From a virus: 64,000 nt of DNA. Of this stretch, positions 1,232 to 57,645 are shown one piece after another. The notes beneath the pieces are model-generated. The model ran no database searches and was not told where the DNA came from. It was given only the letters and a program-made list of their open reading frames with translations. How positions within the stretch are numbered: the stretch's first letter is position 1; each line of letters starts with the position of its first letter. Made by a program: the position numbers and the translations under genes. The DNA lies in IMG/VR virus record IMGVR_UViG_3300027969_000044, positions 1 through 64,000 of that record; one strand, written 5' to 3'.

Positions 1232-2413
1232 ATGGCTACTAAACTTAAACAAGCATCTATCGAAATCCGCCAAAGCAAAGGACGTGACTACAGTCCAAAG
1301 TGGGATGGCGCAACTGAATGGGATGCTAATCAATTTACTCGCCATTTTCACGCATCGATGGCCTGGTATCGTTTGGAAAGCTCTGTTAAAGAACTCAAGC
1401 CCAAACTTGTAGAATGGTGTAAACTCAACGGGTACGACCAAGACGATGTCTATACTATCCGTAAAACTAAGGACAAATATTTTAACGGGACTATGTGCTC
1501 TATTGGTGCGTGTCTGCTCAAAGGCATGCCCGAAGTACACGAAGGCTTCAACGGCGGCAAAGATACTGCCGTATGGTTGCGTAAAGAAATTGAAAAGGTG
1601 CTTGCCGAAGGTGCCAATGACTTAGAAGAAGATGACGTTCCTAAGAAAGTTGAAAAGGTTGCTGTCTACGTTCCTACTATTCAAGATCGGTTACGAGAAG
1701 CCGCTGGAGACATGAGTGAAGAATTGGACTACGCTATTGACCAGTGGATTACGGATCCAGAAGGCTTTAACCCAAAAGAGTTTAAGGTTGTCAACTTGCT
1801 TAAAGGTAAAGGTGCCAAGGCCGCTCACGCACGGTTGATTAAAGGTTACTTCCAAAGCGGTGCTGACGAACTTGCTGAACTTGCTAGCGGAAACGCAGAC
1901 GAGCAGTTGAAGGAAGCATACAAACATGTCGCACGTAAGAATGTTAAGAAGCTGATTGAGTTTTACGAAAACATTGCCCAGGCATGTGAACAGATTGCCG
2001 CAGAACAGAAAGTGCTTAAGAAGCCTCGTGCTAAGAAAGTTAAGCCCGCAGAGGACTTGGTTAAGAAGGTCAAGTTTATGTTGAGTGAAACTAAACTTGG
2101 TATTACGTCAGTGCCGCCTGCGTCTATTATCGGTGCTCAAAGTGTTATAGTGTATAACACTAAGACTCGTAAGATTGGTGTGTATGTAAGCAAGACCAGC
2201 GCCGGCTTTGGCGTTAGAGGTACTAGCATTACAGAGTTTACTGAAAAGAGCTTTCAAAAGACCCTGCGTAAGCCGCTTGAACAACTAAAAGAGTTTAAAG
2301 AGCAGAATACGCAGAAGCGGGCCATTGATTGGTTTACTAAGATTAAAACAACCAGTGTACTGCTTAACGGACGTCTTAGTGAAGACATTGTGATTCTTAA
2401 GGCGTATAAATGA
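1232..2413 (+). CDS. Lys-rich hypothetical early protein
   Basis: 393-aa ORF with a perfect promoter and SD; no family recognised. Confidence 0.85.
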   Translation: MATKLKQASIEIRQSKGRDYSPKWDGATEWDANQFTRHFHASMAWYRLESSVKELKPKLVEWCKLNGYDQDDVYTIRKTKDKYFNGTMCSIGACLLKGMPEVHEGFNGGKDTAVWLRKEIEKVLAEGANDLEEDDVPKKVEKVAVYVPTIQDRLREAAGDMSEELDYAIDQWITDPEGFNPKEFKVVNLLKGKGAKAAHARLIKGYFQSGADELAELASGNADEQLKEAYKHVARKNVKKLIEFYENIAQACEQIAAEQKVLKKPRAKKVKPAEDLVKKVKFMLSETKLGITSVPPASIIGAQSVIVYNTKTRKIGVYVSKTSAGFGVRGTSITEFTEKSFQKTLRKPLEQLKEFKEQNTQKRAIDWFTKIKTTSVLLNGRLSEDIVILKAYK

Positions 2414-45950: not shown

Positions 45951-46793
45951 ATGACAGATTATTACCACGCCCTTGGTGTTCAAAAGGGAGCTTCAGATGA
46001 TGAGATTAAAAAGGCTTATCGCAAACTGGCGATGAAGCACCATCCTGACCGCGGTGGCGATGCATCTGAATTTCAAAAGATACAAGAAGCATACGCCACA
46101 CTTAGTGATCCACACAAAAGAACAGAGTATGATAACCCCACTCCACAGTTTGGCGGCGGATCGGGGTTCCCTCCCGGATTCGAAGAAATGTTTCGAAACG
46201 GACAATTTGGAGATATGTTTGGAGGAGGTAACCCATTCTTTGGAGCAGGCTTTGGACGACAACCTCGACAATCAAAGAATAGAGACATAAGCCTCGAAAC
46301 ACAAGTTACATTAGAAGATGCCTTTTCCGGCAAGACAATTATGGCGAACATAAATTTGCCTAGCGGAAGAGAGCAAGTACTAGAAATTAAAATACCCCCC
46401 GGAATTAGCACAGGTCAACGCCTAAGACTACAAGGAATGGGCGATGATTCAAATCCGCATTTAAACAAAGGTGACATATACATTACCATTCATGTAGCAA
46501 GACACAGTACATATGAAAGAGAAGGCGATGATTTAATTACAGAAATTACTATTTCGGTCTGGGATGCTATGTTAGGAACCGATACAACTATTAAAACTCT
46601 CGACAACAGACAATTACAAGTAGGAATTCCAGCAGGAACGCAACCGGGTAGTACATTACGATTAGCAGGATACGGAATGTCAAACATACAAGATAGTCGG
46701 TTTAAAGGAAATATTTTATTAAACATTAATGTTAATGTACCTACTAATTTAACTGAAGAACAAAAAAATCTAGTTAAACAACTTAAGGCGTAA
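45951..46793 (+). CDS. dnaJ: DnaJ-class co-chaperone (class B/CbpA-like, no Zn finger)
   Basis: [24 protein letters not shown]-rich region, C-terminal domain. Confidence 0.93.
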
Positions 46794-47306: not shown

Positions 47307-49595
47307 ATGATATTGGAACCAAACAGCGATCTTGAACAGATTTTTGAAAGAGCAGTTAATCTTGCCATTAAGAATCAGCACGAGTATATAACACTTGAGC
47401 ATTTCTTACACAGCATGGTCGTTGATCAAAAGTTTGGAGCATTGCTCAAGGACTTTGGAGCAGAGGTAGCTGACCTAAAAGCTAACCTAGAAAACTTCAT
47501 CGATAAAGAACTAGACGATATCAAGGTAGTTGCTAAAGATCAAAAGCCAAAGAAAACAAACACAGTTGAGCGTATGCTTAATCGTGCGTTTACACAGGTA
47601 TTGTTTAGCGGACGTAATGTAATTGATCCAGTTGATTGCTTTATTAGCCTGTTTGCCGAAAAGAAGAGTTTTGCCAACTACTTTTTACGTAAAGCTAAAG
47701 TAGACAAAGATGCGTTTATTAAATGGATTAATGAAGAAAATTCTAAAGACGAAGAAGAAGGCAGCGAAGGCGGCCGTGGTGGTGGTAGAGACTTAGATCG
47801 TTTGATTGGAAAGTATTGTGTTAACCTAACACAAAAAGTAAAGAACAAACAAATTGATCCTGTTATTGGCCGCGAAAAAGAGATCGAAGAAATTCAACTG
47901 GTACTTGCTCGCCGTACAAAGTCAAACGTTATGATGATCGGTGATCCGGGTGTAGGTAAGACTGCTATTGCTGAAGGTCTAGCACGTAAGATCTTTGAAG
48001 GTAGCGTTCCTAAATTTATTTTAAATCACACAGTTTATAGTCTAGACATCAGTGCTATGATCGCAGGTAGCAAATATCGCGGTGACTTTGAAGAACGTTT
48101 GAAAGGTGTTATTAAAGCACTTGAAAATAAGAAAGACGCTATTTTGTTTATCGACGAAGCACACATGATGAATGGTGCTGGATCAGCAGGTAGTGGTTCT
48201 AATGACATGTCTAATATGCTTAAACCAGCATTGGGCAAAGGTACTATTAAAGTTGTAGCAAGTACAACATGGGAAGAGTTCCGTAAACACTTTGAAAAAG
48301 ATCGTGCGTTGATGCGTCGATTCCAGCGTGTAGTTGTTAACGAACCTAACGAAGCTACCGCCATTAAGATCATCAAAGGTCTTAAAAAGTATTACGAAAA
48401 ACATCACGGTGTTAAGATTACAAATCAGGCCATTATTGATAGTGTTAAGTATTCTATCAAATACATGACTGATAAGAAGTTGCCAGATAAGGCAATTGAC
48501 TTAATTGACTGTGCGTGTGCTCGCTTTAAGGTTAGAGATCAGGAAGCAGGTATTGTTGATCACGACGAAATCTTGTTTGAAGTTAGTAAGATCGCAAACT
48601 TGCCTTTAGATCAAATTGCATCTAAAGAAAACAAGAATCTTGTTAACCTTGAAAAGAATATGCGTGGTAAGGTGTTTGGTCAAGAGAAAGCAATTGAAAT
48701 TCTGCTTGATAAAATCTTTATCGCACAAGCAGGGTTAAAGAGTATTAACAAACCAGTTGGTAACTTCTTGTTTGTTGGTCCAACTGGTGTTGGTAAAACT
48801 GAAACTGCTAAACAATTAGCAAGTAATATGAGTGTAGAACTTGTTCGCTTTGATATGAGCGAATTCCAAGAACAACATTCTGTTGCCAAGTTTATTGGTG
48901 CTCCTCCGGGATATGTGGGCTTTGAAGACAACGCAGGTCAGTTGATCACTAAACTACAAGAACATCCTAACTGTATCTTGTTACTTGACGAGATTGAAAA
49001 AGCTCACCCAAGTGTAGCAAACGTTCTACTACAACTTATGGATAACGGTTATGTTACTGGTTCAAATGGAAAAGTAGCAGACGGTCGTAATTGTATTTTG
49101 ATTATGACCAGTAACCTAGGTGCCGCTGATGCTGAAAAGAACGCGGTAGGATTTGGCAGTTTAGAACGTGATGATGACAGCAAAGATGCTATTAACACAT
49201 TCTTTAAACCCGAGTTTCGGAACCGTTTAGACGGCATTATCAAGTTTGGCAAGTTGGATCAAACTACTATGGTTAAGATTGTTAAGAAGTTTATTGACGA
49301 ACTTAATTCATTGTTAAAAGATCGCCATGTTCATGTTAAGCCCGATGCTGACGCAGTTGAGCTATTGATCAAGAAAGGCTTTAACAGTAAAATGGGCGCT
49401 CGTCCACTAGCACGTACTATTGACGACTTAATCAAGAAGCCGTTAAGTAAGCAGATTCTTTTTGGCAACTTACAAAATGGCGGATTAGTAGAAATACTAG
49501 TTAAAGGCGATGACCTTATGCTAAATTACATCGAAACATTACCAGTTGTTGATGTGAAAGCCGAAGAGATACAAATTGAAGACGCTGGAAACTAA
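47307..49595 (+). CDS. clpA: ATP-dependent Clp protease ATP-binding subunit (ClpA-like)
   Basis: N-domain HEYITLEH; Walker A GDPGVGKT and GPTGVGKT; no ClpB M-domain; ClpP-docking loop AVGF; GARPL. Confidence 0.93.
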
Positions 49596-50265: not shown

Positions 50266-50282
50266 TGGCATAAATACATGTT

Positions 50283-50693: not shown

Positions 50694-50764
50694 GCCATTT
50701 TTGTCATAAATACTCTATTATTACAGAGTTAGACTCTGTTCATGACATTAAGGTACGGTTATAT

Positions 50765-51154
50765 ATGAAACTTCTCGAATTCTTCGGAAAACCTATAGAA
50801 ATACACCAGGATAAAAACGATTCCCGTAAACCGGGAGAAGATCCTAAGTTAAATCGCGAAGAAGAAGATCAGCTTGCTAACGATATATTAGAGTATATCC
50901 TTAACAACGACGAGCTACACAAAAAGCAGTTTTTACCCGTAGCAAGAAAACTCCACAAAAACCCAACAACACATCACAAGCCTGATGTATGGCTACCTTT
51001 AGTAAACAAAGGATGTATGGAGTTTTACAAAGAACGAGATATGAGTGGCGATCCAATGGATCTATTCAATAAAGAATTTAGGTCTGACTTATGTAAGAAA
51101 TTTTCAGACCATAACAAACACATCCTCATGGGTGAATACAATCTCGGAAGATAA
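50765..51154 (+). CDS. Hypothetical protein with MKLLEF leader (candidate internal head protein)
   Basis: 129 aa; TAAATA at 50707-50712. Confidence 0.75.
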   Translation: MKLLEFFGKPIEIHQDKNDSRKPGEDPKLNREEEDQLANDILEYILNNDELHKKQFLPVARKLHKNPTTHHKPDVWLPLVNKGCMEFYKERDMSGDPMDLFNKEFRSDLCKKFSDHNKHILMGEYNLGR

Positions 51155-51157
51155 CCC

Positions 51158-54100
51158 ATGCTATTAAATGAATTTTTTAAAAGATCATTAACCGAGGGCG
51201 GAAATCTTGCCATTGGTCAAGATCAAGCGCAAAGCATTGATTTAAAAGTACACAACAGAGCTTTTATAGTTCCTATACTTACAAAACTATTATACGGAAT
51301 TAACGATGGGTTTGCCGCAGTTAATCAAAAGCCATTGTGGAATCCCGCCCTATTACAAAAGGGAGAATTCCTAAGCGGCTCTAGTTTACATTTCTTCAAC
51401 ACAAAGATTCCCGACGAGCAATTTGAAAAAGTTAAACCTAAAGTAGGCGACATTGACACACAAGTTGATAAGTTAATGGAGAAAGAACTAGAAGGATGGT
51501 TAAACTCTGTTAAGGGTAAACTTATTGGCGGAGGTAAGTTAATTGGCTTTGAGAGAGGCAACGAGCAATACAGTAGTCTATGGGAATTACAAGACCCTCC
51601 TATTAAAATACAAATTGACTTAGAGTTTGTTGCGTTTGACAAAGAAGAACCAACAGCATGGAGTAAATTTAGTCACTCAAGTGATTGGGAAGATATACAA
51701 GCAGGTGTCAAAGGTGTATTCCACAAATGGTTGATACAGTCATTTACAGATCTAACTACTCGTGATTTCTTATTGCGTAAACTAGTAGGTCGCGGCAAAG
51801 CCCGTGTTGAGCAAGATGTACCTGCCAATGACAACTTATTATCCTTTGCTGTTAGCAGTAAAGAAGGTGGCGGACTACGTCCTAAGTACGAGCCAGTGAC
51901 AGACGAAGCTGGACAGCCGTTAATTGTAGACGGGCTACCTGTTATGCGAGCATTGCCTCCTGCGGGATACGAACAAGACATTGGTAAGATATTTGCTCTA
52001 ATCTTTGGAGACAGAATTGATCCTAAGAAAGCAAAACAACTAAGCACTAAGTTTTGGTCATTTACTGGCTTGCTAGATGTAATGACACAGGTGTTAAGTC
52101 CTGAAGAACAACAACAAGTTGTACAGGCATTTATACATAAACTGTATGACAAGGGCGCACAAGGTCTTTATAAAAATGATCCAGAACGTGATGCCGAAGA
52201 AAAAGATGCCGCTATGGCCAAGATGCTTGAAGTATTAAAAATAGCGCCTCCTCCAGAACTAGCACAGATGAAGCAGTCATATCAAGCAAATTACAGAATG
52301 ACTACAAATGAAAGCCTGCGTGAAGCTGAAGAACCAGCACCAGTTAAGGCACAGCTACGCAAAGGTATGCCACACTTACACGATCTAAAGGCTCCTGATT
52401 TTTTAGACCTATTAGATGAGATTCACGACGGCAACGGTAACTTCAAGTTACAAAACGTTCCATTAAATGTCAAAGTAGACGGCTTTGGTGGACGATTTGG
52501 TAAAGATGCTAACGGTAAACCATTCATGGGTACTAGCCGAACAGAGCCACGTTACGAAGCCAGCTTTGTCAAGTATCATCAACAAAAGGGCACAACAGAT
52601 CCAGAGATCTTAGGTCGTGCTCAAATGTTTGACGACTTGTTTAAAGAAATGATGAACGCTATTAAACTAGTCGATGGCAAACTAGGCCCAGACTTTTTAA
52701 TCAACAAACAAGTAACTTGTGAAGTATTGTTCTTACCATTTGCTACACAAACTGACGAAGGTCGTTTAAAGTTTGTGGGCATTGAATACGATCAACTACC
52801 ACAAGGTGTACAACTGGCACTAGTTCCATTTCATGCTGTAGAAGCAGATAGTGGAGAGCCTGTTGAAGATCCAGAATTTATTGATAGCTTACTTGAAGTA
52901 GGTAATCAAGGTAGTGTTATGTTTATTAACAATAGACTAGCACAGAAAGAAGGACTTGACGTTACAGAAATTATCAATGTATTAGATAACATTGAAGAAC
53001 TAAAACAAATTGTATCTGATACAGCAGGCAAGCGTGACCGCGCTAGTCTACAGTTAAAGAAAGAAGTAGAAGAAAAACTACAACCTATTAAAGATCAATT
53101 AGAGCAAGCAATTATTAAAGATCCTAACATTATTGGAAAAGATATGTTAGGTAAAGACTATGAAGGCATTGTTATTAACAGTCGTCTCGGTCCTATCAAA
53201 ATTACCAGTCAAGAACAGCGTGATGTTATCAGTGCCAAGTTAGATGCTAAGAAAAATGCTCGCACAGAACGTCCCCGTGATAATCAAAACAAGACAGCAG
53301 TAGTTGCCATTGGTAGCTTTGTTGGACACAAGGGTCATCAAGAACTTTGGCAGTATACACAACAAGAAGCCCAAACACTGGGCGGCGATCCGTATTTGTT
53401 CATCGGTAATGCCGAAGGCAAAGACGATCCTATTCCTGTTCCCGACAAACTTAAAACATGGCACATGTTGTATCCGCAGTTTGCCAAAAACATCAGCGCG
53501 GTTACGCACGAAGGTGGAAGCATTATGCAGAAGATTAAACACGAGTTGATTAATCCTTTACCAGGCAAGCCTCCACGTTACGACAATATTGTTATTATGG
53601 TTGGCGAAGATCGTAAAGACTTACCGTTAGGTAAAGCTCTAATGAAAGCTGTTAATAAGTTTCCAGGATACGAGCACGTTAAAGTAGACTTAAAAGTTAC
53701 TCCACGTGGTCAAGGAGTAAGCGGCACTGCTCTTAGAAATATTCTAAAGACAGGCAACCCTAACCAACAATACACATTCTGGAATGACACATTTAACGGT
53801 GGCAAGTTTGGATCACAACAATTAACTCCAGAATGGATTAAACACCTAATGGATGTAACCAAGAAAGGTATGGGCATTACTACCCCTTCAGTTACAGCAC
53901 CAATTAAGAAACAGGAACAACCAACTATGGCTAAACCTCAACAACCAGTACAGCAACAGCAACCAGAGCAAGAGCCGTTAGCTGAAAGTATCCGTAGAGA
54001 AATTATGATTACTCGAGCAGAGATTGCTTGGCAGAAAGAATTGTCGGAAGCAAGGATGAGTGCTGCCGTTAAACTTCAACGAGCCTTTGATAGAGAGCGT

Positions 54101-55633
54101 TCTAAGAGTGACGCTAGTCGTCAACGTGCTGACGCGGCCAAGGCAGCGTTTGAGAAAGAGTGGAAAGCTAAACAAGAAAAAGAAAAGCAAGGTGTGGCAG
54201 AAGATTTAGAAACAGGACATGTGCAAATGCTTTTACATAAAGCATTACAGGCACGCAGAGAAGGCAAACCATTGCAAAGTGTAATGCGTAAAGAAGAAAT
54301 TGCATTATTATCTATGTTGCAAGGAAGTGGAAAACTACAAGGTATGGTTAAAAATAAAAGTGTAGGCGAGGCGCCAATTGAAATGGATCCTGCAGAACCA
54401 ATGAATCCTACAATCTACGGACATCAAGGAGTTAACTCTGCCGAATTAAAAACTCGCATGATGCGAGCTCAAGGACAATTAGCAGACCTGGCAAAGAGAG
54501 CACAAAACGCTAGCCCAATTGAATGGGAAATAATTACACGTAATTTTAAAGAGTTGTCAATGAACATTGAACAGATTCGTCACGCACTAGAAGAACTAGC
54601 TAAAGTTCGCAAGCGTGGTGGGATTCGATCTAGAGGCATTGATAAAAATATTGGTGAGCAAGGTGTGGCGGAAGGCTTATTAGACCCTTCTAAAAGAACT
54701 CAGCTTATTCGTTTCCTAGCAAAGAAAATGGATTGGGAAGTTAACTATCTCGAACTTGCTACTGATCATGAACTTATCAAATGGTACAAAAAAGTACAAG
54801 CCGGTCAAGATCCAATGAAGGAAGATTCGGTAAATGAATTAGTTGGTTATAAAAGCGATAAAAATTATCTAGCGGTAGGTACCCATAAACGATACGATGT
54901 ATATGTGGGTAAAAAGAAGTTTAATAATTTATACTTTATTGCAATTGCAGAAAATCCAAGAACATTAGATGCTAAATTTAAAGCCAAGGGCAATACTCCA
55001 CAAGAGGCAGTAAATAATTTAAAATTAGAAATTGATAAAGAAATTGATGTTGCTACCAAAGTTAGTGGTGCGGCTATATTAGATTTTAATGTAGATTTTG
55101 TAAAAGAAATATTAGAAATGAGTATTGATACGTTTTACGCTAAAATTATTTCAGGTCCTAAATTAGTAATAGCAGGTAGAGAAATGATGGAATACCCTGA
55201 TATTATGAAAAGTGAAGGGTTTAAACCTAGTACCATTAGAACTTACAAAGGCGGAGAAGGTACTACTAAACTACCCGGAGTACCATTAAGCGCCGGAGCG
55301 GCTGCGGCTGCAAGTCTTATTGCCAACGGTAGATATGTATTAGGCGCAGAAACTACAGATAAAGACGGTAACAGAGTATTCAATTTAGAATTTGATAGCG
55401 TTGTTCAAGCATCAAACGATAAAATGAGATTAAGAGCACCTGCGGTTACTGTAGGAACTAATAGATCACAAGGTGTTGCGGAGGCCGGTAAGATTAAGGG
55501 CGCTGACGGTAAAGCCTGTTGGAAAGGTTATAAGTACGCAGGTACTAAGAACGGTAAAGACAAGTGTGTTCCAGTTAGCGAAGATGCGGAACAACTAATG
55601 GCAGGTTTTATTAAGTTGTTGGAATCAAAGTAA
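51158..55633 (+). CDS. 1491-aa modular protein: Pol-beta-type NTase, ligase-type (KxDG) NTase, HIGH-type NTase and C-terminal cassettes
   Basis: LSGSS..VGDIDTQV..IQIDL; NVKVDG..YEGIVI..IKI; IGSFVGHKGH..VGEDR..SGTALR; QGVAE linkers three times. Confidence 0.75.
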   Translation: MLLNEFFKRSLTEGGNLAIGQDQAQSIDLKVHNRAFIVPILTKLLYGINDGFAAVNQKPLWNPALLQKGEFLSGSSLHFFNTKIPDEQFEKVKPKVGDIDTQVDKLMEKELEGWLNSVKGKLIGGGKLIGFERGNEQYSSLWELQDPPIKIQIDLEFVAFDKEEPTAWSKFSHSSDWEDIQAGVKGVFHKWLIQSFTDLTTRDFLLRKLVGRGKARVEQDVPANDNLLSFAVSSKEGGGLRPKYEPVTDEAGQPLIVDGLPVMRALPPAGYEQDIGKIFALIFGDRIDPKKAKQLSTKFWSFTGLLDVMTQVLSPEEQQQVVQAFIHKLYDKGAQGLYKNDPERDAEEKDAAMAKMLEVLKIAPPPELAQMKQSYQANYRMTTNESLREAEEPAPVKAQLRKGMPHLHDLKAPDFLDLLDEIHDGNGNFKLQNVPLNVKVDGFGGRFGKDANGKPFMGTSRTEPRYEASFVKYHQQKGTTDPEILGRAQMFDDLFKEMMNAIKLVDGKLGPDFLINKQVTCEVLFLPFATQTDEGRLKFVGIEYDQLPQGVQLALVPFHAVEADSGEPVEDPEFIDSLLEVGNQGSVMFINNRLAQKEGLDVTEIINVLDNIEELKQIVSDTAGKRDRASLQLKKEVEEKLQPIKDQLEQAIIKDPNIIGKDMLGKDYEGIVINSRLGPIKITSQEQRDVISAKLDAKKNARTERPRDNQNKTAVVAIGSFVGHKGHQELWQYTQQEAQTLGGDPYLFIGNAEGKDDPIPVPDKLKTWHMLYPQFAKNISAVTHEGGSIMQKIKHELINPLPGKPPRYDNIVIMVGEDRKDLPLGKALMKAVNKFPGYEHVKVDLKVTPRGQGVSGTALRNILKTGNPNQQYTFWNDTFNGGKFGSQQLTPEWIKHLMDVTKKGMGITTPSVTAPIKKQEQPTMAKPQQPVQQQQPEQEPLAESIRREIMITRAEIAWQKELSEARMSAAVKLQRAFDRERSKSDASRQRADAAKAAFEKEWKAKQEKEKQGVAEDLETGHVQMLLHKALQARREGKPLQSVMRKEEIALLSMLQGSGKLQGMVKNKSVGEAPIEMDPAEPMNPTIYGHQGVNSAELKTRMMRAQGQLADLAKRAQNASPIEWEIITRNFKELSMNIEQIRHALEELAKVRKRGGIRSRGIDKNIGEQGVAEGLLDPSKRTQLIRFLAKKMDWEVNYLELATDHELIKWYKKVQAGQDPMKEDSVNELVGYKSDKNYLAVGTHKRYDVYVGKKKFNNLYFIAIAENPRTLDAKFKAKGNTPQEAVNNLKLEIDKEIDVATKVSGAAILDFNVDFVKEILEMSIDTFYAKIISGPKLVIAGREMMEYPDIMKSEGFKPSTIRTYKGGEGTTKLPGVPLSAGAAAAASLIANGRYVLGAETTDKDGNRVFNLEFDSVVQASNDKMRLRAPAVTVGTNRSQGVAEAGKIKGADGKACWKGYKYAGTKNGKDKCVPVSEDAEQLMAGFIKLLESK

Positions 55634-56040
55634 TGCTATTAACACAGCTATTTGAATCAGCAACTAATGACGCAACCCTAATGGATATGTTGCCTACGTT
55701 CTTACCTTTAGCTTTAGAAATTTTAGAATTACGCAACGTGCCTAATATTAAATTAGAAAAGTTTATTGACGACGAAGTACAACCTACATTTGGTAAATTT
55801 GTCAGTGATGAGAACATAATTTACTTAGGAATTGCCAACAGACACCCTGTAGATATTTTACGTACACTGGCACACGAAATGGTACATTATAAACAAAACA
55901 TAGAGCACGATCTAGATAGCGAATCAGGTCGCACAGGAAGTCCTCAAGAAAATCAAGCACATGAAATTGCCGGAGTTATTATGCGAGAGTTTAATAAAGC
56001 AAATCCAGAATTCCTAAAAGCTAGGCCATTAGAGTTTTAA
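55633..56040 (+). CDS. Zincin-like metallopeptidase (HEXXH)
   Basis: LRTLAHEMVHYKQ with downstream E (QENQA); leader MLLTQLFE. Confidence 0.75.
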   Translation: MLLTQLFESATNDATLMDMLPTFLPLALEILELRNVPNIKLEKFIDDEVQPTFGKFVSDENIIYLGIANRHPVDILRTLAHEMVHYKQNIEHDLDSESGRTGSPQENQAHEIAGVIMREFNKANPEFLKARPLEF

Positions 56041-56051
56041 TAAATACCCAT

Positions 56052-56435
56052 ATGAGAGCAAACGAATTTATTTCTGAAAATCGCAAAGCAGGCAAAGTAA
56101 AGAAACGTGCCGCGGCTGTACAGCAAGGCATTAGAAAGTCTCGCGATGTTGGCGGATATGATCGTGTAAATCACATGAATCGTTTGTGGATGGCAACTGC
56201 TATGGCAGACGGCCAAAGTAAAAAAGGTGTAGATATGGATAGTTACAGTTGGATGGAAAAATACAACACACAACATCCATATACACAAGAAGAATACAAT
56301 ATGTTCAGGCAAGCAGAAAATACTGTCCCAACGGATAGTAAAGAAGTTACACCATGGACAAAGAGTGTAGAGCCAGAAGATACTTATAAAGTAAGTCCGT
56401 CCTCTACATGGAATGTTAAGAAGAAAAAGAAATGA
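56052..56435 (+). CDS. Hypothetical protein with MRANEF leader
   Basis: 127 aa; TAAATA at 56041-56046. Confidence 0.75.
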   Translation: MRANEFISENRKAGKVKKRAAAVQQGIRKSRDVGGYDRVNHMNRLWMATAMADGQSKKGVDMDSYSWMEKYNTQHPYTQEEYNMFRQAENTVPTDSKEVTPWTKSVEPEDTYKVSPSSTWNVKKKKK

Positions 56436-56608
56436 AGATTAGAGAATTATTAGAAGCGGCAAGTAGCGGAGCAACTGGCTCCGGTTCTATTGCGACCGTA
56501 ACTAATCCTGGTGGGAAACCAGCTAGTCAAGTAGGATCTCTGTTTGGTGGTACTTACGGAGAATCTAAAAAAACTAAACCTAAAAAATTTATTAAGAGAC
56601 CGCAATGA
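56432..56608 (+). CDS. Small protein with MKIRELLE leader (58 aa)
   Basis: Manual translation MKIRELLEAASSGATGSGSIATV...KKFIKRPQ; ATGA overlaps at both ends. Confidence 0.75.
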   Translation: MKIRELLEAASSGATGSGSIATVTNPGGKPASQVGSLFGGTYGESKKTKPKKFIKRPQ

Positions 56609-57645
56609 CTAAAAAAATAAAAGAAATTAGTACAGGTGACTATTACTCTAAAGCACACAAGGGGAAAATTTCTGCAGCATCTAAAATGATGTTTGCTGAT
56701 CCTGCTAAGCCAGAAGTACAAAAAGCAATGCGTGACTTTAAGAATAGAGACGCAGGAATGAAACGTGTTTCAGCAAGAAATCAAAAAGCCAGACAGACAA
56801 CTGCTGATAAGAACCGTCAGGGTGCCCTTGCAGCCGATAAAGAAAATCTTCCAGCGTTAATGGCACAGTTTCAAAAGCTAAGAGGTCAGTATGATCCTAA
56901 TTTTGAATACAGTGACGATCACAGTTTTTGGTCAAAGCAAAAAGATATCCAGCAACAATTAAGTGCGTTACAAAAACGTATTAACGATGCTGGTGGAAAA
57001 GTATCAGAGGGAACTAATCCCGAGTATGACGACGAAGCAGGTATGTCTGATAATAATCTAGAAACACTGAGAAGAACAATCGACGGCATAGATGGTTTGA
57101 TTAAGCCCGGTGATAATTTACCAGAATGGTGTCAGGAAAAAATTGCTGTTGCCAAATCTATGTTAGTAGCAGTATGGGACTACATGCAGTCCGAACAGGA
57201 AAGAGGCGCAATGGAAGGTGTTGGCGATTTAGGATATGACGCACAATCTTTAATAATGAAACTGCGACGAGATGTTGAAGAAAAAAGATTACAACCAACT
57301 CCGCAAGCAGTATTAGCGGCCGCATCAGAATTAGCAGGAGATATGAAATTTGCTCCTCAACTACTAGTTCAACAAGTCTTGGGCAAGGGTGTAGCAGAAG
57401 GCGGTGTTAAAGAATGGAAAAAGGGAGTCAAGGCTCCGGTTAAACCACGTAACTTTGTAGCCAAAAATGCGTCAACTGGCGGTGCTGGCGCACATAAAGA
57501 TAAAAAGAAAGATGCTAAACAAGGAAAAGCCAAGCATAAAAAAACTCCAGAGTTAGCCGAAACAGCAACATATGATCGTAGATTAAATGTATTATTAGAA
57601 GCGAAAATGCTAACTAGCCAAATTAGAGATTATAGAAAGAAATAA
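56605..57645 (+). CDS. Modular hypothetical protein (candidate processed head protein)
   Basis: Segments bounded by KIKE, KVSE, GAME, KGVAE and ELAE; basic C-terminal module. Confidence 0.75.
   Translation: MTKKIKEISTGDYYSKAHKGKISAASKMMFADPAKPEVQKAMRDFKNRDAGMKRVSARNQKARQTTADKNRQGALAADKENLPALMAQFQKLRGQYDPNFEYSDDHSFWSKQKDIQQQLSALQKRINDAGGKVSEGTNPEYDDEAGMSDNNLETLRRTIDGIDGLIKPGDNLPEWCQEKIAVAKSMLVAVWDYMQSEQERGAMEGVGDLGYDAQSLIMKLRRDVEEKRLQPTPQAVLAAASELAGDMKFAPQLLVQQVLGKGVAEGGVKEWKKGVKAPVKPRNFVAKNASTGGAGAHKDKKKDAKQGKAKHKKTPELAETATYDRRLNVLLEAKMLTSQIRDYRKK

Follow-up and report, generated by a model that had tools for sequence, protein, structure and literature searches.

Shuffled protein modules joined by a DNA-conserved linker at a candidate capsid-cargo locus of an uncultured GAP32-like giant phage

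The gene block and the phage that carries it

The window is the first 64,000 nt of a metagenomic contig of 166,311 bp, and the features of interest lie in a block of genes (Table 1). Two of the encoded proteins, P0001 and P0002, contain chains of small modules, and around them are shorter ORFs with N-terminal leaders. The phage is an uncultured, GAP32-like giant relative of T4. Its contig encodes a Gp23 capsid protein about 70% identical to the counterparts in GAP32, Serratia BF, Vibrio 2.275.O, and Phosso, along with an S77 prohead protease at contig position 131816-132448, for which the PF03420 match of 91.3 bits, at 131888-132319, is over the cut-off. The T4 protease gp21 cuts after L/I-X-E (PMC9026906). 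In the capsid protein of this phage the predicted maturation site reads L-A-E followed by A; four cultured relatives have L/M-x-E followed by S/T at the corresponding place.

Table 1. Features of the block and its upstream motifs, in window coordinates
Feature	Position	Strand	Remarks
ATAAATA late-promoter-like motif	50270..50276	+	13 nt before ORF 50283
ATAAATA late-promoter-like motif	50706..50712	+	59 nt before ORF 50765, where the leader-bearing genes begin
129-aa ORF with CTS-like N-terminal leader	50765..51154	+	
P0001, 1491-aa candidate cargo polyprotein	51158..55633	+	C-terminal third is a chain of small modules
P0001 N-terminal leader, 13 aa, ends L-T-E	51158..51196	+	resembles T4 capsid targeting sequence (PMC8442874)
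P0001 enzyme part, then P/Q-rich spacer ending PLAE	51197..53986	+	profile matches
Module B, aa 944-1015, long helix, ends in linker 1	53987..54202	+	
Linker 1, QGVAE, aa 1011-1015, CAAGGTGTGGCAGAA	54188..54202	+	
Module C, aa 1016-1071, ends SVGE (54359-54370)	54203..54370	+	
Module D, aa 1072-1172, ends in linker 2	54371..54673	+	
Linker 2, QGVAE, aa 1168-1172, canonical CAAGGTGTGGCGGAA	54659..54673	+	
Module E, aa 1173-1227, ends SVNE (54827-54838)	54674..54838	+	confidently folded helical bundle (AlphaFold model)
Module F, aa 1228-1442, ends in linker 3	54839..55483	+	
Linker 3, QGVAE, aa 1438-1442, CAAGGTGTTGCGGAG	55469..55483	+	
Module G, Cys/Lys-rich CWKGYK motif, aa 1443-1475, plus 16-aa C-terminal helix	55484..55630	+	
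135-aa zincin-like ORF (HEMVH), leader-like N-terminus	55633..56040	+	
ATAAATA late-promoter-like motif	56040..56046	+	12 nt before ORF 56052
127-aa ORF, 9-aa leader ending I-S-E	56052..56435	+	
58-aa leader ORF	56432..56608	+	its start is similar to the maturation site predicted for the capsid protein
P0002, 346-aa modular protein	56605..57645	+	without own leader in this genome
Junction KVSE in P0002	56998..57009	+	well-supported homology breakpoints aa 133-139
Junction GAME in P0002	57205..57216	+	breakpoint aa 198
Linker KGVAE in P0002, aa 261-265, AAGGGTGTAGCAGAA	57385..57399	+	most drifted copy

Leaders are present on 8 of 137 genes, five of them adjacent in the block, against a control rate of 1.7%. 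Those of the block resemble the T4 capsid targeting sequence, or CTS (PMC8442874), and in the orthologues of ORF 56052 the leader ends F-I-A-E, like the T4 CTS. The 7-mer ATAAATA is linked to gene starts, with 15 of its 23 contig sites no more than 60 nt upstream of one, many of them ahead of structural genes; the exact T4 late promoter, TATAAATA, has no copy in the window. The missing leader of P0002 counts against reading that protein as cargo. In relatives, the 58-aa leader ORF is fused to a P0002-type protein, and here the two are separate genes with an ATGA overlap. Fusion by frameshifting was considered and rejected, there being a stop in the P0002 frame 12 bases before the ATG and no slippery site.

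Modules of P0001 and P0002

A first, sequence-only reading had described module chains and recurring linker motifs in both proteins, and this description stands with small corrections. The enzyme part of P0001 has three nucleotidyltransferase-like regions, one matching phrog_19290, one matching phrog_12709 with a KVDG motif, and one cytidyltransferase-like with HxGH. Beyond it, in the AlphaFold model, folded modules are separated at every junction by a break in a helix or by a stretch of low confidence. Module G ends PVSE (55571-55582) and is also found in cyanophage S-PM2 p145; it and the P0001 enzyme part are the only portions with distant cultured relatives. Pfam gives nothing above threshold for the single modules, the ESM Atlas gives no usable match to module F, and module C has no relative among the fetched loci. 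By tblastn, P0002, modules D+E, and module F find no match in cultured phages, and megablast of the region finds none in 50,697 phage records. Because modules D, E, and F are unmatched among those records, this metagenomic contig is assigned to a clade without a cultured member.

Related uncultured phage contigs, more than 80 of them, carry the same modules in other orders, in other genes, and in other company. Modules B, D, E, F, and G, and three pieces of P0002, are each found in several different contexts, which shows the modules to be unrelated and separable. Module E, for example, follows a different upstream module in each of P0001, locus L006, and L048, and module F has five different contexts. 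Single modules were also found in other genes adjoining the same linker, a point the first reading had proposed to check. The frameworks of the relatives' orthologues hold Phage_lysozyme, LysM, ParB_N, GNAT, dCMP deaminase, and GH19 modules; the Pfam scan finds no such effector domain in the small modules of this phage.

Both protein and DNA homology stop at linkers, with ends in this genome at 54204, 54671, 55481-55490, and 57388-57403, and the ends of blastn matches pile up there. For module B, blocks to L039 and L046 stop at 54203-54204; near linker 2, the sole match to L013 is a 24-nt block of 100% identity; at linker 3, blocks to many loci begin at 55481-55499. In P0002, one block stops at 57210 and the next begins at 57213, within GAME, and blocks stop at 57388-57403 around the KGVAE linker. 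Well-supported breakpoints lie within 2 aa of an [LIVM]xE motif in 25.8% of cases, compared with 10.1% for random positions, and no such excess is seen for control motifs ending in D, K, or Q (5.9%, 5.9%, and 4.4%, with random positions at 8.5%, 11.2%, and 4.2%). The expectation that presence and absence of modules in relatives would change at linkers is thus borne out.

The linker as peptide and as DNA

In a six-frame translation of the whole contig, GVAE occurs 4 times, always in P0001 or P0002. Over the predicted proteome, QGVAE is observed 3 times with 0.04 expected, and the expectation for GVAE is 1.2. More generally, most junctions consist of a hydrophobic residue, any residue, and Glu, with a small residue next; QGVAE followed by G is the form preferred. 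The hydrophobic-x-Glu pattern is kept while the rest of the linker changes, giving SVGE, SVNE, VTE, ISE, IEE, GVTE, and GVSE. The C-terminal junction of module F appears as QGVAE, QGVSE, QGVTE, or PGVTE, and its restriction to the middle residue counts in favor of a cutting rule. In 22 distinct contexts x-x-Glu stands before module D, and in 21 of these the third residue before the putative cut is hydrophobic. Exceptions at that place, with Ala or Thr, are GAME here, which has Ala, and TAE and AEE in relatives. Counted against a cut site is how short and common [LIVM]xE is, with 555 occurrences in the proteome.

The linker is also a DNA word of about 15 bases with the core GGTGTGGCGGA. Allowing up to 1 mismatch, this 11-mer has 4 matches in the window where 0.30 are expected, and three of them are linkers. 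The word is found on the coding strand only, in frame only, and at this locus only; a genome-wide count confines it to these genes. At least 120 stretches in IMG/VR contain it exactly; in the 80 of those examined, all 127 exact sites are in frame within long ORFs, with up to 7 sites per locus and 6 per ORF. A non-coding role was rejected, as neither the opposite strand nor the remaining reading frames contain a copy. In GAP32, BF, Vibrio 2.275.O, and Phosso, the word has just background-level one-mismatch matches, which counts against the reading we develop below.

The codons of the linker had been called uncommon, and they are: across this genome, GTG accounts for just 7% of the codons for Val, and GCG for 10% of those for Ala. 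Its own four linkers have GTG, GTG, GTT, and GTA for Val, and GCA, GCG, GCG, and GCA for Ala. When 24 distinct sites are picked by protein similarity, GGT is used in 23, GTG in 19, and GCG in 20, compared with background use for the same residues of 37-40%, 7-14%, and 7-10%. At conserved control peptides in the same loci, silent sites vary freely. Measured against genome codon usage, then, the linker is conserved at silent sites and with rare codons, in agreement with what had been foreseen from the single sequence. The best explanation of this conservation, we infer, is that the word has repeatedly undergone recombination or gene conversion.

Comparison with known systems

It had been said at the outset that no named system resembles this one, which is too strong, there being close precedents for separate parts in the T4 internal proteins (IPs) and Alt, in polyvalent proteins, and in shuffling at PeSL and GRM motifs. 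In T4, gp21 removes the CTS from IPI, IPII, IPIII, and Alt, and this cargo is believed to pass into the host cell together with the phage DNA (PMC9026906, PMC3012670, PMC8442874). The present phage likewise encodes an S77 protease, and it resembles T4 further in its short leaders ending in hydrophobic-x-Glu and in having a variable locus away from the head genes. An N-terminal propeptide of T4 type, some 10-19 residues long and with a gp21 site at its end, is predicted in P0001 (13 aa) and is lacking in P0002. Pfam and PHROGs scans return no family of IPI, IPII, IPIII, or Alt. Each T4 cargo protein is one unit that receives one or two terminal cuts, whereas many modules are chained here with putative sites between them, and T4 sites have no fixed DNA word that is known, unlike this linker.

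Polyvalent proteins (PMC5512222) have 2-15 domains in highly variable architectures, and are predicted to be delivered together with the DNA and to be processed into units. Their trait of many domains per polypeptide, in an architecture varying between relatives, is found here, and the domain types in common, here or in relatives, include lysozyme and ParB-like, with a candidate metallopeptidase besides. What differs is the junction; autoprocessing by an MPTase domain is proposed for polyvalent proteins, with no common linker described and the word 'linker' itself absent from the paper (PMC5512222), whereas the junction here is defined, conserved as DNA, and fits a head protease.

PeSLs (2010, PMC2839356; PMC4122927) are similar in being short repeated DNA motifs in hyperplastic regions of T4-type phages, with recombinational insertions, deletions, and replacements. 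As with motifs of the PeSL and GRM type, we find a short motif at the borders of variable segments and genome differences that start and end there. A PeSL, however, lies between genes, combines promoter and terminator, and mobilizes entire genes, whereas the word here is part of the coding sequence, preserves the reading frame, and mobilizes protein modules; the promoter and terminator stem-loop of a PeSL are not matched at a word that is in frame inside ORFs at 127/127 sites. The glycine-rich motifs (GRMs) of the T-even gp38 adhesin (PMC3157838, citing Tetart et al. 1998) are short, conserved in-frame motifs between variable segments, where crossovers make chimeras. They form the structural core of one folded domain in one gene family, and are not cleavable linkers between modules. 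The giant phages phiKZ and SPN3US, which are of a different lineage, have a gp21-related protease for which many head proteins are substrates, cut behind the Glu of a short motif (PMC9026906), and heads that hold a large mass of proteins ejected into the cell (PMC7411985, PMC10052503); chained cassettes or a DNA-conserved junction have not been reported for them. In our literature search, no paper was found describing this system of chained modules with a dual-use linker.

Interpretation

We think it rather probable that P0001 and P0002 are capsid-cargo polyproteins with junctions of dual use, serving as cut sites and as in-frame exchange points. The block at 50765-57645 would be a late-expressed capsid-cargo locus, the counterpart of the T4 internal proteins and Alt, with short N-terminal leaders that would bring its proteins into the prohead core. 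P0001 consists of an enzyme part and junction-joined small modules. Cleavage behind the junction Glu, in P0002 as in P0001, would be the work of the S77 (gp21-type) prohead protease, and would free modules inside the head for delivery to the host along with the DNA. At the DNA word, relatives have swapped, acquired, and lost modules without leaving the reading frame. The cassette-exchange half of this, which the sequence-only reading had already put forward, is well supported by the breakpoints, the module contexts, and the silent-site conservation. All the computational checks proposed with that reading agreed with it, and none of the outcomes named there as refuting it was observed; counted against the exchange half is the identical core of about 15 bases, which is short for homologous recombination.

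That the junctions may be head-protease sites is suggested by their hydrophobic-x-Glu form, and is consistent with the S77 protease, the capsid site, the CTS-like leaders, and the late-promoter-like motifs. If they were uncut, the linkers would be flexible spacers in intact multi-domain proteins, relevant only as a recombination joint. Disorder is indeed predicted where they lie, which would hold for any spacer, and the virion RNA polymerase of N4-like phages enters the particle without processing (PMC5512222). A spacer, however, needs neither an invariant Glu nor a hydrophobic residue two positions ahead of it, a pattern kept across changed linkers, and replacing the final Glu of the motif by D, K, or Q abolishes the enrichment of breakpoints, so we regard uncut spacers as unlikely.

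The silent-site conservation might instead come from a function in RNA or translation; ribosomes might, for instance, be made to pause at module boundaries by rare codons or through base pairing with the tail of the 16S rRNA. GTG and GCG are indeed rare here, parts of the word look like Shine-Dalgarno sequence, and for anti-SD pairing its GAG form ranks among the top 1.5% of coding windows. The commoner GAA form, however, pairs at -7.2 kcal/mol (top 8%), and recoding it with common codons gives -6.5 (top 12%), so that the rare codons add only 0.7 kcal/mol and the codon choice is not explained by a pause. A pause would require rare codons, not identical ones everywhere; tRNA genes, which might have supplied tRNAs for the rare codons, are absent from both contig and window; and breakpoints at the word need recombination anyway. 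An internal translation start after the word was rejected, as no consistent start codon lies behind it. All considered, this explanation seems to us slightly less likely again than uncut spacers, and recombination is the more plausible agent maintaining the word.

A third alternative concerns the cutting enzyme, the candidate being the zincin-type metalloprotease of the block (55633-56040), which would act in the head or after injection. Its ORF has an HExxH motif and a phrog_87 metalloprotease match and bears a leader, and in L049 and L058 it is joined to additional modules; a processing role was predicted for the MPTase domains of polyvalent proteins by Iyer et al. 2017 (PMC5512222). Its Pfam metallopeptidase matches, however, are weak and below threshold, the MPTase-PolyVal family is unmatched, and the junction pattern is the documented rule of T4-type proteases, common also to the capsid protein's predicted site. 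We would call this improbable as the source of the cutting, and the zincin-like protein could be either such a rival processing protease or further cargo. Finally, all compared loci are metagenomic assemblies, and contigs misjoined at a repeated word could mimic a mosaic, which we all but dismiss; the shared word of 15-24 bases is under the usual final assembly k-mer sizes, the same architectures come from independent samples (for example L006, L007, L009, L010, and L040; or L050, L051, L054, and L056), and the reading frame is preserved at every junction.

A stronger form of the dual-use reading is possible, and here we lean slightly against rather than for it. The word of about 15-20 bases would be an actively maintained, dual-coded element, at once a head-protease cut site and an in-frame recombination joint. 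It would amount to domain-level cassette exchange for capsid-delivered effectors across a large uncultured clade of giant lake phages, in which modules flanked by the word could move between cargo genes and between co-infecting phages.

If the dual-use reading is true, a clade of giant phages would have a built-in means of assembling and re-assorting the small proteins delivered with its DNA, in which one gene loads many effectors and one short sequence is both release site and swap point. This would explain fast diversification of counter-defence cargo. It would also give a rule, a leader plus QGVAE-delimited units, for spotting injected phage effectors in metagenomes, and a model from nature for loading T4-type capsids with several foreign proteins at once. 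The silent-site conservation of a coding linker is a rare clean case of selection or conversion acting on DNA and on protein through the same bases.

Genome setting

The 64-kb window opens a 166,311-bp IMG/VR viral contig (completeness 46% by CheckV), and every large gene is on the + strand. Among the contig's products are a Peptidase S77 prohead protease of the T4 gp21 type, a Gp23-family capsid protein, a gp44-like clamp loader, a family B DNA polymerase, baseplate-wedge-like proteins, and tail-fibre proteins. Because the capsid protein shares ~70% identity with its counterparts in GAP32, Serratia BF, Erwinia pEa_SNUABM, Vibrio 2.275.O, and Sinorhizobium Phosso, all phages of 350-470 kb, the phage is, as judged by sequence, an uncultured giant relative of T4 belonging to their group. 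Just upstream of the putative cargo block (50765-57645), positions 45951-46793 encode a DnaJ-like J-domain protein and positions 47307-49595 a ClpB/ClpA-like double AAA+ ATPase, both kept in one relative (L048), which suggests that the clade has its own chaperone or unfoldase.

Chained modules

P0001 consists of a leader, an enzyme part, and modules B to G; P0002 is a smaller modular protein. The sequence-only reading saw in both a chain of modules joined by a repeated QGVAE linker. The chain is real and above chance, with 3 QGVAE observed against 0.04 expected by composition in the predicted proteome of 51,362 aa, where 1.2 GVAE would be expected. A six-frame translation of the whole contig has 4 GVAE, all 4 inside P0001 and P0002. 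The further junctions it had listed (SVGE, SVNE, PVSE, KVSE, and GAME) are also present, at most a few bases from where they had been placed.

Modular proteins and their linkers
Feature	Position	Strand	Length or basis
P0001	ORF 51158-55633	+	1491 aa
P0002	ORF 56605-57645	+	346 aa
QGVAE in P0001 (linkers 1, 2, 3)	aa 1011-1015, 1168-1172, 1438-1442	+	sequence
KGVAE in P0002	aa 261-265	+	sequence

An AlphaFold2 model of P0001 aa 930-1491 (25 aligned sequences, mean pLDDT 62) makes modules B, C, D, and E confidently helical, and each junction falls in a low-confidence stretch or a helix break. Searching 50,697 deposited phage genomes gave no matches to modules D, E, and F or to P0002, and relatives of the enzyme part only 24-30% identical. 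The N-terminal two thirds of P0001 (51197-53900) has three nucleotidyltransferase-like regions: phrog_19290, phrog_12709 with a KVDG ligase-type motif, and an HxGH cytidyltransferase-like region. The latter two resemble cyanophage S-PM2 p142, where the 'cytidyltransferase' is a gene of its own.

Junctions as candidate protease sites

T4 gp21 cleaves after L/I-X-E, first observed at a Glu-Ala bond (PMC9026906). Our capsid protein has a predicted site, L-A-E|A, immediately before its conserved N-terminal arm, and the equivalent place in the capsid proteins of four cultured relatives reads L/M-x-E|S/T. The linker, putatively cut as V-A-E|G, fits the gp21-type rule. Upstream of module D, x-x-Glu is found in 22 of 22 distinct contexts, 21 of which are hydrophobic at the third position before the putative cut; downstream is a stop or another junction of the x-x-Glu kind. 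Module F ends in G-V-x-E in every case, x being A, S, or T. Some junctions have Ala or Thr third before the cut, and so no hydrophobic residue there. That the linkers are uncut spacers is unlikely, as a spacer has no need for an invariant Glu preceded, two positions back, by a hydrophobic residue. The junction is best read as a head-protease site, a plausible reading that rests on context.

The linker is conserved as DNA

The codons of the linker had been noted as uncommon, and comparison with codon usage bears this out. Among 24 distinct GVAE sites, from loci picked by protein similarity, GGT is used in 23, GTG in 19, and GCG in 20, against background use of 37-40%, 7-14%, and 7-10%. In 23/24 the preceding codon has A as its last base, the Glu codon is followed by G in 24/24, and conservation fades outside ~15 bases. 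Strongly conserved intra-module peptides from the same loci, taken as a control, vary at synonymous positions in the ordinary way, with GTG and GCG hardly ever used. Orthologous linkers drift, our P0002 copy being the most drifted, and the variants GVTE and GVSE mostly retain GGTGTG.

With up to 1 mismatch, an 11-mer of this conserved DNA word occurs on the coding strand only, in frame only, and at this locus only, in our contig and three relatives (122-229 kb). An exact IMG/VR scan with the 15-base form matched at least 120 stretches; in the 80 examined, 127 of 127 sites encode (Q/E/K)GVAE in long ORFs, with at most seven sites per locus and six per ORF. The word was not found in the four cultured relatives. 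It is rather improbable that an RNA-level cause conserves the silent sites: the word pairs with the 16S rRNA tail just moderately strongly and the rare codons hardly affect this, tRNA genes are absent, and no start codon is conserved downstream of the word.

Exchange at the linker

An IMG/VR scan with the C-terminal 592 aa of P0001 found 450 loci encoding pieces of it, of which 80 were retrieved, and the pieces combine in many different ways. In L006 and L037 the P0001 orthologue has just the enzyme part and module D; in L047 the enzyme part is followed by B, other modules, and G; and in L050 by LysM and phage lysozyme (both confirmed by Pfam), a piece found in our P0002, and G. Module E is preceded by module D in our P0001, by a P0002-type N-terminal module in L006, and by a ParB_N module in L048. 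A separate search placed module F in five contexts, one of them the protein start directly after a leader. Module G also occurs in T4-like cyanophages, within a separate small gene that adjoins a 'cytidyltransferase' gene, itself a relative of the P0001 enzyme part. Modules at the exact-word loci include GNAT acetyltransferases and dCMP-type deaminases. In L102 (3087-5618, - strand), three unrelated modules of ~54 aa each are bounded by four canonical linkers at intervals of 162, 165, and 162 bases, a strikingly regular unit size.

The breakpoints coincide with the linkers. When 143 non-redundant proteins of the locus were compared all against all, 25.8% of well-supported homology breakpoints fell at most 2 aa from [LIVM]xE, against 10.1% of random positions; the control motifs [LIVM]x plus D, K, or Q show no excess (5.9%, 5.9%, and 4.4% against 8.5%, 11.2%, and 4.2%). 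DNA blocks common to relatives end at 54203-54204 (linker 1), start at 54671 (linker 2) and 55481-55499 (linker 3), and end at 57388-57403 (P0002 linker), and over 26 distinct linkers the block ends and starts are concentrated in the 12-base bins at the word. The sole match of L013 to the linker 2 region is a 24-base block, 100% identical, with the linker at its centre. There is good support for cassette exchange at the linker. For homologous recombination, ~15 identical bases is a short stretch, though PMC3157838 documents crossovers inside small conserved motifs of T-even gp38. Of the dual role first proposed, the in-frame exchange point stands on the breakpoints and the fixed DNA, and the protease-site half is plausible from context.

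Leaders and predicted cargo

A leader pattern, start M-x(2-3)-[E/Q/D]-[F/L/I]-[F/L/I], is found in 8 of 137 predicted genes, against 1.7% at internal Met residues; five of these genes are adjacent (50765, 51158, 55633, 56052, 56432) and two lie beside head genes. Orthologues of ORF 56052 begin M-R-A-K-E-F-I-A-E, a start similar to MKTYQEFIAE, the capsid targeting sequence of T4 (PMC8442874; role in PMC9026906). A large enzyme behind such a capsid-targeting-like leader is an unusual putative cargo, and an injected-cargo role for the modules is a plausible prediction.

No leader was found on our P0002. Relatives have a 58-aa leader ORF fused to the P0002-type protein; in our genome the two overlap via ATGA, and a frameshift site was not found. 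The 58-aa ORF (56432-56608) opens with a leader ending L-L-E, and the next ~14 residues closely resemble what comes, in the capsid protein (gene at contig 133586-134761, L002:1099-2274), right after its predicted maturation site (Ser/Gly/Ala/Thr-rich, ending I-A-T). This likeness, retained in relatives, may be a common protease or core-binding signal. Between the portal and protease genes of Vibrio phage 2.275.O (L214), an 80-aa ORF (13-255) has a leader ending L-F-E, and contig ORF 130336-130590 has a leader of the same kind. Since the word is missing from cultured relatives, the leader type is older than the QGVAE word.

The T4 late promoter is TATAAATA, of which ATAAATA makes up 7 of 8 bases. 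Exact TATAAATA has 0 copies in the window against 6.3 expected. Of the 23 ATAAATA sites in the contig, 15 are at most 60 nt upstream of a gene start, including three in this block and several ahead of structural genes; the motif probably forms this phage group's late promoter core. The next gene after the block (57708) has a sigma-70-like promoter.

Positions 55633-56040 encode a small zincin-type protein (135 aa, HEMVH) whose N-terminus is leader-like; in L049 and L058 this protein forms a fusion with a peptidoglycan-binding-like segment as well as a basic module at the C-terminus. Its gene lies within the block, and an analogous role has been proposed for polyvalent proteins (Iyer et al., PMC5512222), but we rate it low as the processing enzyme because the junctions follow the rule of the S77 enzyme.

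Relation to known systems

Assembly chimeras are a very unlikely source of the mosaic, because identical architectures recur in independent samples and the reading frame is intact at every junction. T4 IPI-III and Alt are precedents for a leader, gp21 cutting, and variable cargo, and phiKZ and SPN3US for heavily processed head proteins. Polyvalent proteins are a precedent for delivered proteins of many domains (PMC5512222, which does not mention linkers). A short repeated motif serves as crossover point in PeSL cassettes (PMC2839356) and in the glycine-rich motifs of gp38 (PMC3157838). Among the full-text literature matches listed for QGVAE, all concern alpha-synuclein. The parts thus have precedents, and the combination is new: an in-frame, protease-site-like junction fixed as DNA, repeated up to 6 times per ORF (in the 80 of at least 120 stretches), and common to a large uncultured clade.
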